Shown here one piece after another: positions 16,137-48,943 of a stretch of DNA of 64,000 nt; the first letter of the stretch is position 1; each line of letters starts with the position of its first letter. Below the pieces are notes generated by a model that was not told the origin of the DNA, searched no databases, and saw only the letters and a program-made list of their open reading frames with translations. The stretch lies in the NCBI RefSeq assembly GCF_003334305.1, contig NZ_QOWS01000021.1. The stretch is one strand, 5' to 3'. The translations under genes and the position numbers were made by a program. This DNA comes from Escherichia coli (GTDB lineage Bacteria; Pseudomonadota; Gammaproteobacteria; Enterobacterales; Enterobacteriaceae).

Positions 16137-16514
16137 ATGACCAACAAAGAAAACAAAGATAAATATATTAACAAGTTCAAGAAAGAGCTTTCAAAATATA
16201 TACAACCAACTGCTGGAGTGGACATTCAATTATTTAACTCTAAGGATGGTGGTGGTGTAATTAAAGCCACTTTGAATAGAAGTGGAAAAAGAAAATCATC
16301 TATTGCAGGTAATTTTACTAAATTAGGTGAGGCAATTACCTCGAGTGGGCAGAGGGTTTTTGGTGGTGATCTATCAAATGTAAATTTTTACGGAACAAAT
16401 ACGATTTTTGATGGAGATACAATATTTTTAATTAAATCACCTGATTCAGAGGAGTGGTCATCACAAAAAGCTTCCAAAGACGTAGAGGGCATCGTATTTG
16501 GAGGGAAAAAATGA
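16137..16514 (+). CDS. Hypothetical soluble protein (125 aa), moron gene 1
   Basis: ORF MTNKENKDKYINKFKKELSKYIQPTAGVDIQLFNSKDGGGVIKATLNRSGKRK...; AT-rich; opposite strand to neighbours; stop overlaps next gene start (ATGA); no family recognised. Confidence 0.55.
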   Translation: MTNKENKDKYINKFKKELSKYIQPTAGVDIQLFNSKDGGGVIKATLNRSGKRKSSIAGNFTKLGEAITSSGQRVFGGDLSNVNFYGTNTIFDGDTIFLIKSPDSEEWSSQKASKDVEGIVFGGKK

Positions 16515-16939
16515 TTAACATTACTACTAAGGATGGCACTCAAGTCAGTGGTGAAGTAAGAGATCTAGTAATTCTTCTTGAAACTGATGGAAAAACGGTG
16601 TCTGATTATTTGCAGCCAATCCCTCCCAAAAAAGATACACACTGGAGCATGATTTTCATTCCGGTAGCAATTTATATACTACTTAATCTTGTATACATTA
16701 TTGCTCACCCATTATTTCCTGAAAAATATCTAAAAACATCAACATCTATATTTCTATTCATTTCCTTCATATTAAGTGCAATAGTAGCATATTTTGTTTT
16801 CCATAAGCATAAATCTGCCACTCTATCCATATGCAGCTTAGTGTTCTTAGTGTTAATTGTAGGTGCTAACGTAGGGTTTATCAGTTACAGCGACCTAACA
16901 CAAAAAGCGACGCAAAAATTAGATAGTTTGTCTAAATAA
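16511..16939 (+). CDS. Hypothetical membrane protein (142 aa, three predicted TM helices), moron gene 2
   Basis: ATG at 16511 preceded by GGAGGG SD; MINITTKDGTQVSGEVRDLVILLETDGK... then hydrophobic segments WSMIFIPVAIYILLNLVYIIAHPLF, IFLFISFILSAIVAYFVF, LSICSLVFLVLIVGANVGFISY. Confidence 0.6.
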   Translation: MINITTKDGTQVSGEVRDLVILLETDGKTVSDYLQPIPPKKDTHWSMIFIPVAIYILLNLVYIIAHPLFPEKYLKTSTSIFLFISFILSAIVAYFVFHKHKSATLSICSLVFLVLIVGANVGFISYSDLTQKATQKLDSLSK

Positions 16940-17017
16940 TTATGTTGCCATGCGAAGTATGCATGGCTGCATGTCTGCCTTCCATTTAAAATGGGCTAAG
17001 ACCTATAACCCTAAATA

Positions 17018-17731
17018 TTATTCTTTATTATCTTCTTTACCACTTCGCACCATCCCGTTCGACTTGTTGCGGTTGTACTTCGCCTGAAGCAGCTGGATTG
17101 GCGTCGGGCCATGCTCGGCAGCCGGTGCTGCAATCGCCCGGCGCACAGGCGGTACTGGTTTGCCCTCGGTGACGCGCCTCTCCCACATGTCCAGCAGATC
17201 GCCGGCTTCACGCGCCAGCTCACCATGCGTTAACTGGCGCTCTGTGCTGCGGTGGCGCAGTTCGACGCAGATGTGGTACATGACAGGCTGTGACCACGGG
17301 AAATGCTCGCTGGAAGTGAATTCGAAGGAACGATTACGCCAATCCCAGTATTCGGTTATGACTTGGTCAACAGTGATACCTAACGCCCCGCCACTCTGCT
17401 TACACCACGCTACGAACTGGCCGGGCGACGGCAGGAATGGTCGCTCCTGTCGGCGGGCCACGCGCATTCCGGCGTTAACCTGTTCCATTGTGGTGATCCC
17501 GTTTTCCCGGAAAGCCAGAACCCACTGGCGGCGAATTTCGTTCAGTTCGTTCTGGTCACGGTTAGCCAGGCTCGCAGGGAAAGTTGCCAGCAACTGGCTG
17601 AATACACCGTTGATGATCTGCGCTACCTGCTGTACCTGCGGCTTTTCGTCGTACTGTTCCGGCATGTTGTTGGCGATCCGGCGCATCTGCTCACGGTCAA
17701 AGTTAACCATCTGTGCGGCGATGTTTTTCAT
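17018..17731 (-). CDS. P: Replication protein P-like (DnaB helicase loader), lambda-like N-terminus with divergent C-terminal half
   Basis: 237 aa MKNIAAQMVNFDREQMRRIANNMPEQYDEKPQVQQVAQIINGVFSQLLATFPASLANRDQ... matches lambda P over the N-terminal ~110 aa; remainder differs from my recollection of lambda P. Confidence 0.8.
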   Translation of the reverse strand: MKNIAAQMVNFDREQMRRIANNMPEQYDEKPQVQQVAQIINGVFSQLLATFPASLANRDQNELNEIRRQWVLAFRENGITTMEQVNAGMRVARRQERPFLPSPGQFVAWCKQSGGALGITVDQVITEYWDWRNRSFEFTSSEHFPWSQPVMYHICVELRHRSTERQLTHGELAREAGDLLDMWERRVTEGKPVPPVRRAIAAPAAEHGPTPIQLLQAKYNRNKSNGMVRSGKEDNKE

Positions 17732-18657
17732 AAATCCACCCCGTAAATCCAGTCAGTGTTCGTCAGGTCGAGTTTTGGTTTGCCGGCTGTCACGCCAGCC
17801 TGTTGCTTGTTTCGGTTGATTTCGAGCTGGGTCCACTTGTCGCGGAGTTTGGCCGGACTCAGCACGTTACCGGACCAGAAGTTGTCCTGGCAGGCCCAGC
17901 GAAACAGTACACACATGTCGCGGTGGTTACGTCCATCACGTTCACGCATCAGACGGATATCGTTAGCCCACCCTGCAAAATTCGGTTTTCTGGCTGATGG
18001 TGCGATAGTCTTCACCATGTCAAACATCCACTCTGCGGCGGTCAGGTCTTCTGCTGTCCCCCACTTGCTGCCGTTCTGAATCGCAGCATCCGCTTTCACC
18101 ACAGGAAGGTCGTTTTCTGGCAGGTCAGAGGATTCGCCAGAATTCTCTGACGAATAAGGTTTTATATTGTCTTTTGTTAGTTTGTCTTTTGTGTTTACCG
18201 GATTCGGGTAAGTGCCTTTACCTGATTTGGGTAAACTTTTCTTACCTGATTCAGGTAAATTTACCTCTTTCAGGTAAACTTTATTTTTCTTACCTGATTC
18301 GGGTAATGTTGACCATTCACTGACCACATTATTAATGCCTATATTCCGCCCGCTCTGAATAAAAATCCCACGCTTTACCAGAACACTTTTTGCAGCAGAA
18401 CACTTGTGCGGCAATATCCCGGTCAACTCGGAAAGTTGCTCGTTGCTCACCCAATCCAGTTTTTTATTAAAGCCATATGTTTTGCGCATGACAGCCAGGA
18501 AGACCAGAAGCTGGTGCTGTGTTAATCCGGCCAGCATTACAGCTTCCAGCAACTCATTTGCAATGCGCGTATAACCATCATCGAGATCTGCCACGCGCGG
18601 CTCCTTTTGTGCCGCATCCGGCACAGGAAAATTGAATATCTCAGCAGTGTTTGCCAT
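17728..18657 (-). CDS. O: Replication initiator O-like
   Basis: ORF 17728..18747 trimmed to ATG at 18657 with GGGAGG SD (MANTAEIFNFPVPDAAQ...); C-terminus ...ANDIRLMRERDGRNHRDMCVLFRWACQDNFWSGNVLSPAKLRDKWTQLEINRNKQQAGVTAGKPKLDLTNTDWIYGVDL matches lambda O; iterons inside the gene. Confidence 0.85.
   Translation of the reverse strand: MANTAEIFNFPVPDAAQKEPRVADLDDGYTRIANELLEAVMLAGLTQHQLLVFLAVMRKTYGFNKKLDWVSNEQLSELTGILPHKCSAAKSVLVKRGIFIQSGRNIGINNVVSEWSTLPESGKKNKVYLKEVNLPESGKKSLPKSGKGTYPNPVNTKDKLTKDNIKPYSSENSGESSDLPENDLPVVKADAAIQNGSKWGTAEDLTAAEWMFDMVKTIAPSARKPNFAGWANDIRLMRERDGRNHRDMCVLFRWACQDNFWSGNVLSPAKLRDKWTQLEINRNKQQAGVTAGKPKLDLTNTDWIYGVDL
18195..18307. repeat. Replication origin iterons (five ~18-bp direct repeats) inside the O gene, with adjacent AT-rich tract at 18130..18194
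   Basis: tttaccggattcgggtaa, tttacctgatttgggtaaa, cttacctgattcaggtaaa, tttacctctttcaggtaaa, cttacctgattcgggtaat; encode the repeated LPESGKK peptide in O. Confidence 0.8.
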
Positions 18658-18743
18658 AATTCCTCCCGCAATGAGTGTGTTACGATTTGCACCTGAAAGT
18701 CGGTTCTGTTCCCGCAGACCGACTTTCGCCATTTTTAAACCTG

Positions 18744-19289
18744 TCATATTGCCCCCAACATGGTGGTAACCATCGCCATCAATGGACCAGCCAGATCCGG
18801 GTCCACACGAAACATCGACACAATACCTTCACTCATCTCCTTCAGTTTCTGGTGGCGTGGTGCGTTGAGAATGACAGCCTGTTTTGCCTCACTGAGTTCC
18901 TTTTCCATTTCAGCCAACCGAGTCATGAAGCTATCCTGCTCAACCAGGTAACCGCGATATTCCAGCGGTAGTACCGCCAGAATTGCCGGGGTCAGTTCAC
19001 GCACGTTATTTCGGTATTTTTCAGAATCGAATTTGTTATCGAGGAAGCGGAACAGCTTCTGGCGTGCACGGCTGACATCATCAGGGAAATCGATGGTGCC
19101 GCCGCCCTGTGCTCGATACTCATTCACAATGAGTGCGGCAACAACATCCTGATTATCTGCAGCCGACCAGGCGCGGACGGCATCACGGATTTTTTCGTGG
19201 CCTGGCACCTGTTTTGTTTGAGAACGATTTATCACCGCAGTCGGGCTAAATCCGCTAGTCTGTTGGTATGTAAGTGGTTGCATAGTCAT
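18744..19289 (-). CDS. Hypothetical regulatory protein at the cII position (possibly YdaT-like)
   Basis: 181 aa MTMQPLTYQQTSGFSPTAVINRSQTKQ...NEYRAQGGGTIDFPDD...; placement directly downstream of cro-like gene; family assignment uncertain. Confidence 0.5.
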   Translation of the reverse strand: MTMQPLTYQQTSGFSPTAVINRSQTKQVPGHEKIRDAVRAWSAADNQDVVAALIVNEYRAQGGGTIDFPDDVSRARQKLFRFLDNKFDSEKYRNNVRELTPAILAVLPLEYRGYLVEQDSFMTRLAEMEKELSEAKQAVILNAPRHQKLKEMSEGIVSMFRVDPDLAGPLMAMVTTMLGAI

Positions 19290-19313
19290 TGCCTTATCAG
19301 TTAACGCCGCAGT

Positions 19314-19541
19314 TTAGGCGGCAGAATTACTCGCGTTAAACAATGGTGCGAGGTCGGGACGAATATCTGCTGGTTTAATCTTTCCACCAGTGGCTGAGAC
19401 AATTTTCATTACATAGCGGGCATCAATTCCGCCACCGTGTAGCCAACGCCAAACTGTGGGTTGGGCTACACCGCATAGATCTGCCAGTCGTTTTTGACTA
19501 CCTGTAATACTGATTGCGAGTTGAATGGTTTGATTTGTCAT
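19314..19541 (-). CDS. Cro-like HTH repressor (YdaS/Cro family)
   Basis: ORF 19314..19547 (TTG) trimmed to ATG at 19541: MTNQTIQLAISITGSQKRLADLCGVAQPTVWRWLHGGG...; divergent from cI; AGGA SD. Confidence 0.75.
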   Translation of the reverse strand: MTNQTIQLAISITGSQKRLADLCGVAQPTVWRWLHGGGIDARYVMKIVSATGGKIKPADIRPDLAPLFNASNSAA

Positions 19542-19572
19542 TATCAATTCCTATTGGTATTGCAATGAATGA

Positions 19573-19601
19573 ATAATAGCAATGAGTATTAACCCAAGCA
19601 A
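19573..19601 (-). promoter_or_regulatory. Candidate PR promoter (-35 TTGCTT, 17-bp spacer, -10 TATTAT on minus strand) overlapping OR operator repeats
   Basis: Minus-strand ttgctt gggttaatactcattgc tattat upstream of cro-like gene; AGCAAT/ATTGCT repeats overlap. Confidence 0.55.
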
Positions 19602-19615
19602 TAGCAAAACGTGTT

Positions 19616-19643
19616 TTGACCATCAATACGCAAGCGTATAAAT
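19616..19643 (+). promoter_or_regulatory. Candidate PRM promoter (-35 TTGACC, -10 TATAAAT region) giving a leaderless or near-leaderless cI mRNA
   Basis: ttgacc at 19616..19621 and tataaat at 19637..19643; cI ATG at 19652 has no SD, as for lambda PRM/cI. Confidence 0.45.
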
Positions 19644-19651
19644 TAAAACTT

Positions 19652-20344
19652 ATGAAAAAAGAAACTCTTGCTGATCGCTTAAATCTAGCGATGGAACAAT
19701 CTGGAATGTCTCAAGGCGCTCTTGCAAAGGCGTCTGGCGTAGCTCAACCCACAATCTGGAGACTGACAAGCGGCAACGCGCGCGGCTCAACAAAAATTGT
19801 TGAAATAGCTAATGCATTGGGTGTTCGAACAGAATGGCTCTCTTCAGGCATAGGCCCGATGAGAAATGACGGTCAACAATCAGGGAAGCCTGCTGTCAGC
19901 CATTCCAAATACTTCAAAATTGACGTTCTTGATATAGAAGTCAGTGCCGGGCCGGGTGTAATCAACCGTGAGTTTGTAGAAGTTCTACGCTCGGTTGAAT
20001 ACTCGTTTGACGATGCTCGTCACATGTTCGATGGCAGGAAGGCGGAAAATATCCGCATCATTAACGTGCGTGGTGACAGCATGTCAGGAACGATCGAACC
20101 AGGTGATCTGCTGTTCGTTGATATCACGGTTAAATCTTTCGACGGTGATGGTATCTATGCGTTTCTGTATGACGACACCGCCCATGTAAAACGCCTGCAA
20201 ATGATGAAGGATAAGCTGCTGGTTATCTCTGATAACAAGAGCTACTCACCGTGGGACCCGATCGAGAAAGACGAGATGAACCGCGTGTTCATCTTCGGGA
20301 AAGTCATCGGGAGCATGCCGCAGACATATAGAAAGCATGGGTAG
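19652..20344 (+). CDS. cI: CI-type prophage repressor (N-terminal HTH, C-terminal S24 LexA-like autopeptidase)
   Basis: ORF 19616..20344 trimmed to ATG 19652: MKKETLADRLNLAMEQSGMSQGALAKASGVAQPTIWRL... and C-terminal ...VRGDSMSGTIEPGDLLFVD...HVKRLQ (Ser/Lys dyad motifs). Confidence 0.88.
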   Translation: MKKETLADRLNLAMEQSGMSQGALAKASGVAQPTIWRLTSGNARGSTKIVEIANALGVRTEWLSSGIGPMRNDGQQSGKPAVSHSKYFKIDVLDIEVSAGPGVINREFVEVLRSVEYSFDDARHMFDGRKAENIRIINVRGDSMSGTIEPGDLLFVDITVKSFDGDGIYAFLYDDTAHVKRLQMMKDKLLVISDNKSYSPWDPIEKDEMNRVFIFGKVIGSMPQTYRKHG

Positions 20345-20473: not shown

Positions 20474-21613
20474 ATGGCAGCGGTTGAATTTCAATTGTCT
20501 AGGAAGATGATTGATTGGATAGCAAATTCTCAAGGAGTTTCTATCGAAACTCTTGCTGACCAAGTCATGCCCAAAAAGATTAATAAATTTCTTAACGGAG
20601 TGGTAAGTAAATCCGCAGCAGAAAAACTGGCAAAAATTGGAGGAATCCCTTTCGGTTTTTTATTTCTTGAAACGCCACCAACTCCAGCCAAACCCAAGAT
20701 CCCTGACTTAAGGCAAGCTATAAATAGCCGTGAGTTAGGAAAAGATTTTTTTGATGTTTACTATGATATAGAATATAAACTTGAGTGGTACAAAGACTAT
20801 TTAAGAGAAAATGGTAATGATGATCCACTCGATTTTATTGGTAAATTTAAATTTAATAGAAAATTAAATTATAAGGTTGTTGCTACAGACATAGCAAACA
20901 CAATACATTTTGATATACAAAAAGAGATAAAAAATGTCACTTTTGAGAGCTATTTTTCTAAAGTGGCAAAACTAATAGAAGACACTGGCGTATTAGTTTT
21001 CAAGAATGGTGTTGTGGGTAATAATAATAAAAGAAAACTTGACACGCGAGAGTTTCGTGGTTTCTGTATATCTGATAGCGTTGCTCCGATCATTTTTGTA
21101 AATAGCTCGGACGCGTTATCTGCGCAGGTATTTACATTATTTCATGAGGTGGCTCATCTTTGGCTTGGAGTCGATGGAGTCTCTGGGTGGGACACAGAAA
21201 AAAACATAGAATCTTTTTGTAATAAAGTTGCTGCTGAAATCTTAATGCCTGATAATCTCTTCAAATCTTTCTGGCTTAATGCATCCAGCGATAATAATTA
21301 TTATCGAGTAAAAGAGGTTTCTAAGTTATTTAAGGTTAGTGATTTCGCTTGTGCAATCAAAGCGTTACAATTAGATTTGATAGAAAGAAACACTTTGGAG
21401 ATAATTAAAGATCAAGCTTACAATAAGCCCAAAAAAGAATCCAATGGTGGTTCTTTCTTTAACACATTACCTGTTCGTAACAGTCCAAAACTTACGAATA
21501 TAATAATTTCCAAAGCAATGTCTCAACAATTACCATTAAGGGAAGCAGGCGTACTGCTAAATGTAAAAGCAGATACAGTTGTTGAATTTTATAAAAAACG
21601 AGAATCTCTATGA
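20474..21613 (+). CDS. HTH (XRE-like) domain fused to ImmA/IrrE-family zinc metallopeptidase (COG2856/DUF955-like), 379 aa
   Basis: AGGTGA SD 4 nt upstream; N-terminal HTH-like segment (SIETLADQVMPKKINKFLNG...AEKLAKIGGIP); HExxH motif in FTLFHEVAHLWLG and downstream E...AAEILMP motif typical of ImmA/IrrE peptidases; AT-rich. Confidence 0.75.
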   Translation: MAAVEFQLSRKMIDWIANSQGVSIETLADQVMPKKINKFLNGVVSKSAAEKLAKIGGIPFGFLFLETPPTPAKPKIPDLRQAINSRELGKDFFDVYYDIEYKLEWYKDYLRENGNDDPLDFIGKFKFNRKLNYKVVATDIANTIHFDIQKEIKNVTFESYFSKVAKLIEDTGVLVFKNGVVGNNNKRKLDTREFRGFCISDSVAPIIFVNSSDALSAQVFTLFHEVAHLWLGVDGVSGWDTEKNIESFCNKVAAEILMPDNLFKSFWLNASSDNNYYRVKEVSKLFKVSDFACAIKALQLDLIERNTLEIIKDQAYNKPKKESNGGSFFNTLPVRNSPKLTNIIISKAMSQQLPLREAGVLLNVKADTVVEFYKKRESL

Positions 21614-22122
21614 TTCATAATGGAAAATTCTTAATTGATAGTAATGTCTTCATAGAGGCAAAAAACTTTGCATATAACTTCAATTATTGCAAAATATTTT
21701 GGGATTTTCTTCTCGCTTTACACATTAATGGTCTGATTTATAGCATTAATGCTGTAAAAAAAGAACTATGTGCAAAAGATGATCCATTGTGTAAATGGAT
21801 TAAAGAAGAGTTACCATCATCATTCTTCGAAGATGAGCATAGTTCAATAGAAAATTATGCAAAGTTAATAAATTGGTCAACTAAATTAGATGTTACCGAA
21901 AAGGCAAAGTTTGATTTTGCAAGCCATGAAAAAGCAGATGCTTTTTTAATAGCCCATGCGATGACACATGGATATACTATTATTACCCATGAGAAACCAT
22001 CCGGTGGCAAACCTAAAAAAAGAATAATGATCCCGGATGCTGCTGCTTCTCACGGCGTTAAGACATTAACACTATATGAATTTCTTCCAAGATACGCTAG
22101 TCATAATTTTTCTTTGAAATAA
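21610..22122 (+). CDS. PIN-like (DUF4411-type) putative nuclease, 170 aa
   Basis: Start overlaps upstream stop (ATGA); N-terminal FLIDSNVFIEA resembles the first acidic PIN strand; ADAFLIAHAMTHGYTIITHEK resembles a later PIN motif; AT-rich; domain call from memory of DUF4411. Confidence 0.65.
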   Translation: MIHNGKFLIDSNVFIEAKNFAYNFNYCKIFWDFLLALHINGLIYSINAVKKELCAKDDPLCKWIKEELPSSFFEDEHSSIENYAKLINWSTKLDVTEKAKFDFASHEKADAFLIAHAMTHGYTIITHEKPSGGKPKKRIMIPDAAASHGVKTLTLYEFLPRYASHNFSLK

Positions 22123-27303: not shown

Positions 27304-27380
27304 TGGCGCGCCCTGCAGGATTCGAACCTGCGGCCCACGACTTAGAAGGTCGTTGCTCTATCCAACTGAGCTAAGGGCGC
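27304..27380 (-). tRNA. argU: tRNA-Arg (anticodon UCU), argU
   Basis: Reverse complement GCGCCCTTAGCTCAGTTGGATAGAGCAACGACCTTCTAAGTCGTGGGCCGCAGGTTCGAATCCTGCAGGGCGCGCCA; cloverleaf-compatible, ends CCA. Confidence 0.93.
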
Positions 27381-48859: not shown

Positions 48860-48901
48860 GTCATACCACTCGCCTGATTATTTTTAGCTATGTTGGATTT
48901 T

Positions 48902-48929
48902 GCCACGGTTTATACCGTGGCTTTTTTTG
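48902..48929 (+). terminator. Rho-independent terminator after allE
   Basis: gccacggtttataccgtggc hairpin followed by tttttttg. Confidence 0.75.
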
Positions 48930-48943
48930 TAGTAAATTCAGGT

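Follow-up and report, generated by a model that had tools for sequence, protein, structure and literature searches.

A putative five-iteron replication origin of the lambda family, with non-lambda half-sites, in the O gene of an Escherichia coli prophage

Then, does the cluster of short repeats within the O-like gene of a prophage in Escherichia coli constitute a replication origin, and would it respond to the initiator of lambda? The question is raised by the window, that is, the whole 64-kb stretch of DNA analysed here, for which a first-pass annotation, made from the letters alone, had described five tandem repeats next to an AT-rich tract and had read them as an origin of the ori-lambda type. 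Based on sequence comparison and on analogy with well-studied phage origins, we suggest that the feature is very probably the replication origin of a lambda-family (O/P-type) replicon in a lambdoid prophage, with a specificity other than that of lambda.

The initiator gene and its embedded repeats

Strain A7 of E. coli (NZ_CP028767) contains the whole window, in reverse orientation, at 100% identity. Its positions 1 to ~27300 are occupied by a lambda-like prophage, which adjoins a tRNA-Arg gene (27307-27380); among its genes are an integrase annotated as intD and lambda-type Red, head and tail genes. The insertion site is presumably that of the cryptic prophage DLP12 in K-12. In its nin/Q region (ybcN-ninE-ybcO-rusA-ylcG-quuD), the prophage has 90% identity to X92588, a 2.3-kb phage 82 record of the nin region. 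The genes and domains around the repeats are as follows.

17018..17731, minus strand: gene of a P-like helicase loader (237 aa) that overlaps the stop codon of O (phrog_109 'P-like helicase loader', E 4e-89)
17728..18657, minus strand: O-like replication initiator gene, 309 aa, from the list of open reading frames
17728..18123, minus strand: lambda-type C-terminal domain of O, with 137/144 residues identical (95%) to phage 434/lambda O
18313..18597, minus strand: N-terminal DNA-binding domain of O, residues 21-115 (Pfam Phage_rep_O PF04492, E 1.2e-33)
18373..18411, minus strand: predicted recognition helix, O residues 83-95, ILPHKCSAAKSVL
18744..19289, minus strand: CII-like/YdaT-domain gene, immediately preceding O in the early-right operon (phrog_163 'CII-like transcriptional activator')

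The O start at 18657 has GGAGGA just before it, and the open frame reaches upstream to 18747. The protein matches phrog_277 'replication initiation O-like' in PHROGs (E 2e-161), and RefSeq names the identical A7 gene, of 930 nt, 'replication protein'; annotation pipelines already name the gene that encloses the origin. This two-domain initiator is followed by its helicase-loader gene. The first ~110 residues of P are nearly identical to those of 434/lambda P, with one substitution, and the C-terminal half is strongly diverged; details of how P interacts with the host helicase may therefore differ. A cro-like gene also lies upstream of O in the same operon, and a cI-like repressor gene is divergent.

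The RefSeq name of the CII-like gene, 'toxin YdaT domain-containing protein', brought the Rac prophage origin (ydaU/ydaV) into consideration. This candidate was rejected, because K-12 YdaU belongs to DUF1376 and the window initiator to Phage_rep_O, which are unrelated families. An Rfam search of the origin region gave no match.

In the AlphaFold2 model of the N-terminal domain (mean pLDDT 78.7, >90 over residues 71-110 and ~95 at helix 83-95), helices at residues 47-60, 72-79 and 83-95 precede a beta hairpin at 99-108. The domain is predicted from this model to be a winged helix, of which helix 83-95 would be the recognition helix. Among PDB folds, the top matches are without exception winged-helix regulators (MarR and CRP families), and they are weak (E of at least 6.5e-3); a sequence search for a solved structure related to O found no relative.

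The repeats are embedded in the O gene, as the first-pass annotation had it, since they fall within 17728-18657 on the minus strand, in the gene of a PF04492 initiator. More exactly, they lie right behind the Phage_rep_O domain and span nt 352-463 of the O gene, the first one at codon 118. The iterons are numbered below along O transcription.

18290..18306, minus strand: iteron 1, TTACCCGAATCAGGTAA in gene sense, the extra site, which is distal and precedes iteron 2 by 29 bp
18261..18277, minus strand: iteron 2, TTACCTGAAAGAGGTAA in gene sense, with an atypical centre, the positional counterpart of lambda iteron 1
18242..18258, minus strand: iteron 3, TTACCTGAATCAGGTAA in gene sense
18218..18234, minus strand: iteron 4, TTACCCAAATCAGGTAA in gene sense
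18195..18211, minus strand: iteron 5, TTACCCGAATCCGGTAA in gene sense, adjoining the AT-rich tract
18152..18194, minus strand: AT-rich tract, ACACAAAAGACAAACTAACAAAAGACAATATAAAACCTTATTC in gene sense, GC 25-27%
18124..18151, no strand assigned: palindrome GTCAGAGAATTCTGGCGAATCCTCTGAC with 12-bp arms, from an inverted-repeat search and comparison with phage 434

The unit is a dyad-symmetric 17-bp sequence, TTACC-N7-GGTAA, present five times at 18195-18306 of the plus strand (18195-18211, 18218-18234, 18242-18258, 18261-18277 and 18290-18306), and the consensus TTACCTGATTCGGGTAA proposed earlier is correct for that strand. The inverted repeat claimed for each copy is there as well, with 5-bp arms that are perfect in 10/10 cases. 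A search of the 64-kb window with the consensus, allowing up to 3 mismatches, returned 8 matches, namely the five sites and three of these again on the opposite strand, all of them confined to the 18195-18306 block; shuffled sequence gave a mean of 0.07 matches, and 0/100 shuffles reached 8.

The description of these repeats as five tandem copies at 18195..18307 holds for their number and essentially for their extent, which ends at 18306, and fails for tandem periodicity: the start-to-start spacing in plus-strand order is 23, 24, 19 and 29 bp. Tandem Repeats Finder, the check that had been proposed, reports just 2.2 copies with a period of 19, because the spacers vary in length, which is not evidence against the repeats; repeat finding and pattern search resolve all five. 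Read in gene sense, the spacing is 29/19/24/23, so that at least three dyad-symmetric repeats of 17-19 bp, about two helical turns apart, are present. It should be noted that irregular spacing is usual in lambda-family origins, that of lambda/434 being 20, 24 and 23.

Directly after the last iteron along O transcription comes the AT-rich tract of about 40 bp. Within the O-P coding region, no 40-mer forms a less stable duplex than 18152-18191 of this tract, which has a nearest-neighbour dG of -43.8 kcal/mol where the mean of the window is -55.6 kcal/mol (z 2.4). The AT-rich tract had earlier been placed at 18130..18194, of which the part 18152-18194 stands; positions 18130-18151 belong to the palindrome 18124-18151, which has ordinary base composition and is not AT-rich. 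By analogy with lambda, the tract 18152-18194 would be the DNA-unwinding element. It aligns with the tracts of lambda, SEN34 and KO-TP1, and the window sequence past the last iteron, ACACAAAAGACAAACTAACAAAAGACAATATAAAACC, aligns with ACACAAAAGACACTATTACAAAAGAAAAAAG of lambda. The motif ACACAAAAGA...ACAAAAGA follows the last iteron in most of 14 O-like genes, with a degenerate ACACAAAAGA-type tract in SEN34, phi80, SPN3UB and Sf101. Beyond the AT tract lies the conserved palindrome, identical to the one found right of the tract in lambda/434.

Covariation of half-sites with the predicted recognition helix

Which protein would read these half-sites? The N-terminal domains of the 14 O-like genes were aligned and set against their iteron types. 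Dyad-symmetric repeats occur at the equivalent position in 14/14 genes, and half-sites and helix sequences pair as follows.

TTACC: window, GZ7 and KO-TP1, residues 83-93 ILPHKCSAAKS
TTACC with a 5-bp centre: P22, residues 83-93 MAPTKCSTAKN
TTAGC: SEN34, HK544, SPN9CC, Yersinia 21.09 and Providencia PSTCR7lys, HHTH(V/C)xxAK
GTCTC: Morganella IME1369_01, residues 83-93 LSRQNVNKAKN
GTCAC: Sf101, residues 83-93 LPRQKVNKAKN
TCCCT: lambda/434, residues 83-93 LPVKRCNEAKL
TTCCCG: phi80, residues 83-93 LSDTHVSDALK

In these alignments, the iteron half-site covaries with the predicted recognition helix across the 14 genes. For example, the SEN34 domain is overall nearest to that of P22 (68%) and only 43% identical to that of HK544, yet HHTH and TTAGC are common to SEN34 and HK544. 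The covariation supports the proposal, already part of the first-pass annotation, that the iterons and the DNA-binding domain of O jointly set the specificity of the replicon. Since both the half-site and the recognition helix differ from those of lambda, the origin should respond only to its own type of O.

The same N-terminal domain and iterons travel with different partners. In the window they are paired with P and a C-terminal domain of the lambda type, in GZ7 with another C-terminal domain and an annotated DnaC-type loader, and in KO-TP1 with a C-terminal domain that is also different. Such shuffling of O domains and loaders is in keeping with the mosaicism known for lambdoid replication modules. 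Phage D2 was considered as a natural hybrid of helix and iterons; its junction is off frame by 2 nt and its genome record is partial, and it was not used as evidence because it may be an assembly chimera.

Constraint on the iterons and rival readings

The iteron block also encodes LPESGKKNKVYLKEVNLPESGKKSLPKSGKGTYPNP, a repetitive, low-complexity linker of the LPESGKK type that joins the two O domains, and a source of the repeats at the protein level therefore needed excluding. The window was compared with the Klebsiella phages GZ7 and KO-TP1, whose N-terminal domain is of the same type, with 86% amino acid identity.

N-terminal domain, DNA identity: GZ7 78%, KO-TP1 76%
N-terminal domain, third codon positions: GZ7 56%, KO-TP1 54%
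Iteron arms, identity: GZ7 98%, KO-TP1 96%
Iteron arms, third codon positions kept: GZ7 14/14, KO-TP1 14/14
Inter-iteron spacers, identity: GZ7 59%, KO-TP1 70%

At the drift of the neighbouring domain, the chance that 14/14 third positions would be kept is ~0.56^14, roughly 3e-4; the arms of the distal iteron 1 are kept at 9/10 positions in the two phages. Judged from this comparison, the iteron arms are constrained as DNA. That the repeats merely reflect the need for a linker peptide, without any role as binding sites, would account for the low complexity of the encoded segment, but a peptide repeat needs no perfect 5+5 inverted repeat in every unit, the arm third positions are fully kept where those of the adjoining domain have drifted, and other O types have the same iteron geometry with quite different linker peptides; we give this explanation a probability close to nil. 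Could the sites instead serve another protein, perhaps a repressor or a host factor, and form a transcriptional or exclusion element inside O in place of an origin? A secondary exclusion effect is conceivable for a prophage origin, since ori-lambda, when present in ectopic copies, can inhibit phages whose replication is of the same type (PMC4488673). However, the half-site changes in step with the recognition helix of the very protein that this gene encodes and does not follow the immunity region; this N-terminal domain and its iterons are seen alongside different immunity regions and loaders (P in the window, the DnaC-type protein in GZ7); and no DnaA box TTWTNCACA is found within 17000-19700. 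A binding site for another protein is thus very improbable, and the lambda-family origin is the preferred reading.

A different matter is whether that origin still works, as it may be genuine by descent and nevertheless a silent relic in a decaying prophage, which no longer fires or is never induced. In the identical A7 genome, the annotation marks the lysis genes Rz and Rz1 as frameshifted or partial, and in view of this the prophage may not be fully competent. Iteron 5, the one proximal to the AT tract, bears a private substitution, an A-to-C change at window position 18200 that is absent from 79/79 IMG/VR relatives. Decay does happen among the 80 close relatives, six of which have premature stops in O or an altered iteron number (4 or 7). 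On the other hand, the reading frames of O (309 aa) and P (237 aa) are intact, none of the ten iteron arms has a mismatch, the annotation gives the repressor, cro-like, Red, integrase, head and tail genes as intact, and the substitution in iteron 5 lies in the variable centre, outside the arms. We therefore consider a silent relic unlikely.

The first-pass annotation had made its case depend on the repeats being periodic and conserved in related phages. Their spacing is irregular, yet the five-site layout is found at the same positions in 77/80 close IMG/VR relatives. In the remaining three, a contig end falls inside the block, a 23-nt deletion has removed one site, and a 43-nt duplication has added two; the deletion and the duplication each break the O reading frame. 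Polymorphism among the close relatives affects 6% of arm positions, 22% of spacer positions and 8.5% of positions in the N-terminal domain, which is in the expected direction and involves few sites, so that the comparison with the Klebsiella phages is the stronger test.

Relation to known origins, proposed mechanism and occurrence

The likeness to the ori-lambda architecture that had been proposed is borne out by iterons, AT tract, palindrome, lambda-like O C-terminal domain and P in the same order. Along O transcription, both origins run from iterons to AT tract to palindrome. They share 17-19-bp units with hyphenated dyad symmetry, the location directly after the O DNA-binding domain, an AT-rich tract of the ACACAAAAGAC type, the identical 28-bp palindrome, the O C-terminal domain at 95% identity and the downstream P. 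In the phage 434 record, four gpO-binding sites of 'ori lambda' are annotated at nt 349-433, and the window iterons start at nt 352. The two origins differ in the half-site (TTACC/GGTAA in the window versus TCCCT/AGGGA in lambda), in the helix (ILPHKCSAAKS versus LPVKRCNEAKL), in the N-terminal domain, which is 49% identical to the lambda type, and in the number of iterons, five versus four. The window iterons are accordingly not of the ATCCCTCAAAACGAGGGAT type that marks the ori-lambda specificity class: with TTACC half-sites and 49% N-terminal identity, the origin would work like ori-lambda, outside the specificity class of lambda. Of the comparisons proposed earlier, that with phage 21 was rejected as a distinct one: the record of this phage carries four annotated lambda-type gpO sites and contributes nothing that lambda does not.

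How is the additional site to be understood? The four proximal iterons of the window are spaced 19/24/23, compared with 20/24/23 in lambda/434, HK544, SPN9CC, Providencia PSTCR7lys, Yersinia 21.09 and Sf101. As these four match the lambda spacing, the fifth site, 29 bp farther from the AT tract, is an extra distal iteron, and it adds 10 codons to O (309 aa versus 299). The Shiga-toxin phages 933W and P27 have six lambda-type iterons, the extra ones being far from the AT-rich tract and lengthening O. These two extra distal iterons are weakly bound yet required for plasmid establishment (PMC7466680). The Shiga-toxin phage iterons are of the lambda type, bound by lambda O, with two extra sites, whereas the window has one extra site in another sequence class; by analogy, they are the best available model for the fifth site of the window, which is probably auxiliary in the same way.

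Among the compared phage initiators outside the TTACC-N7-GGTAA class, that of P22 (gene 18) is the most similar, its N-terminal domain being 65% identical. The P22 origin has related TTACC...GGTAA half-sites followed by the same ACACAAAAGACAAT motif as in the window, but its sites number about four and are more degenerate, with a 5-bp centre instead of 7, the C-terminal domain is another one, and the partner is a DnaB-type helicase (gene 12), unlike P in the window. The HK97/HK544-type origins (also SEN34, SPN9CC, Yersinia 21.09 and Providencia PSTCR7lys) have the 7-bp centre, the 20/24/23 spacing and the AT-rich tract as in the window; however, their half-site is one base off (TTAGC versus TTACC), the helix motif is HHTH versus LPHK, and there are three or four sites.

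The origin of phage 82 has a repeat sequence different from that of lambda and more than four repeats. Phages that share the origin type of the window also share a phage 82-like nin/Q region, with 92-94% identity. It is plausible that the window origin is the classical ori-82, because the nin region of the prophage is 82-like. The classical origin was described by Moore et al. 1979, as cited in PMC6022878.

In lambda, O dimers bind each iteron, the resulting O-some stresses the AT-rich tract, and P, bound by the O C-terminal domain, brings DnaB (PMC6022878). [quoted passage not shown] The winged-helix N-terminal domain would attach O dimers to each iteron, helix 83-95 reading the TTACC half-sites, and the bound O would form an O-some in which the DNA is bent and, if supercoiled, destabilised in the adjoining AT-rich tract. 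The lambda-type C-terminal domain of O would then recruit P-DnaB, and host chaperones would free DnaB, so that replication starts. For the binding of the iterons by O, we infer it from the covariation of helix and half-site and from the conservation of the arms at the DNA level; for replication from this segment that depends on O and P, the occurrence of the origin type in phages listing laboratory E. coli hosts is suggestive.

How common is this origin? With at least 95% identity over at least 80% of the block length, the N-terminal domain and iteron block were found in 2284/5426 complete E. coli genomes (42%), compared with 1325/5426 (24%) for the equivalent lambda-type block. The TTACC-N7-GGTAA class is thus commoner in these genomes than the model lambda type, and it reaches pathogen lineages, with two copies in O157:H7 genomes and one in an ST131 genome. 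The window origin is an ordinary, very common member of a textbook type of phage origin. No iteron annotation is present in any record examined of this class, and no iteron string occurs in the literature searched. The present description fixes iteron sequence, site number and spacing for an origin class that lacks annotation in the examined records, and the covariation of half-site and helix offers a simple, sequence-only sorting of prophage replicons into likely specificity groups.

A bolder proposal can be put forward only tentatively, as one that may well not hold: that TTACC-N7-GGTAA is the dominant lambda-family specificity in E. coli, experimentally uncharacterised, with an auxiliary fifth iteron and a readable code of helix and half-site. 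If it were true, the conserved distal fifth iteron could alter the control of initiation, as the extra sites of the Shiga-toxin phages do, and the pairing of helix and half-site (LPHK-TTACC, HHTH-TTAGC) would be a code that predicts cross-activation or interference among co-resident prophages.

Phages carry the same O/ori type as well, with 96-98% identity in 15 genome records, among them 4A7, Lambda_4C10, 1W, 3W, Perceval, Turner and the PhiR series. Several phage records with this origin type give E. coli K-12 or C as the host, which suggests a working replicon. At the protein level, the 90%-identity cluster of O has 7825 members.

Variation of the iterons and of the O gene

Recombination between the repeats changes the iteron count, and two of the IMG/VR relatives exhibit such changes, which are located in nt 352-510 of the O gene. 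In one of them (L017), a 23-nt deletion in O has removed the proximal iteron and left four sites, while in the other (L042) iterons 2-3 are duplicated (43 nt), giving seven sites. Each change puts O out of frame, and the O copies in these two relatives are therefore probably dead. The window itself contains a private A-to-C substitution at 18200 (O gene nt 458), at the centre of the iteron adjoining the AT-rich tract, by which Gln is replaced with Pro in O. An A is present at the matching position in 79/79 IMG/VR relatives with sequence there, and the C allele is also found in several E. coli genomes with 100% identity.

The O gene of phage D2 (L003, OM475427, nt 604-1625) is of the window type until just before the predicted recognition helix, and of the lambda type from that point onward, lambda iterons included. 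The junction is 2 nt out of frame, and the annotation splits the gene into two CDSs. Either this is a defective natural recombinant or the record is an assembly chimera.

In the E. coli genome collection, the TTACC-N7-GGTAA origin type occurs in a maximum of three copies per genome, two being typical of O157:H7 strains. Prophages that share an O/iteron specificity within one host could activate one another or compete for initiator protein.

The helicase loader and a candidate antisense RNA

The P protein (17018-17731, minus strand) is a mosaic, whose N-terminal ~110 residues are near-identical to those of lambda/434 P, with one substitution, and whose C-terminal half is strongly diverged, although it could still be aligned. 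The literature suggests that the C-terminal half contacts DnaB. Exactly the same P sequence was seen in 387 contigs.

At the other end of O, an oop-like RNA antisense to this gene is possibly encoded on the plus strand at 18632-18740, as suggested by two sequence elements:

18632-18660, plus strand, promoter-like site TTGAAT-17-CATAAT with an upstream TG, overlapping the O start codon
18696-18727, plus strand, 9-bp stem-loop followed by a T run, downstream of the promoter-like site

The predicted transcript would be ~74 nt in length and would terminate where the CII-like gene has its 3' end. The oop RNA of lambda is 77 nt long and occupies the equivalent position. In sequence the candidate does not resemble lambda oop, and it has no match in Rfam.

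Possible accessory genes and lysis genes of the prophage

Two gene pairs were identified near the replication genes:

20474-22122, plus strand, ImmA/IrrE-family metallopeptidase gene (379 aa) and DUF4411 gene (170 aa), overlapping at their junction
16137-16939, plus strand, phrog_18061 and phrog_16940 genes, both of unknown function, in the interval from P to the nin region, on the strand opposite to P

The former pair, which directly adjoins the cI-like repressor gene, may represent a cassette with an accessory or defence role; the corresponding position in lambda is occupied by rexAB. The latter pair, in whose place phages 434 and 1W have ren, resembles a moron insertion, and the phrog_16940 protein looks membrane-embedded.

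In the identical genome of E. coli strain A7, the annotation marks the Rz/Rz1-type lysis genes (window ~11040-11550; A7 record 1331652-1332114; locus L096 753-1215) as frameshifted or partial, and lysis may therefore be defective in this prophage. The late-gene region also includes genes for an ompC-like porin and an iss lipoprotein. The enterobacterial sRNA STnc480, which is unrelated to the origin, is encoded in the chromosomal section of the window at 48866-48932 on the minus strand (Rfam RF02068, 87 bits).
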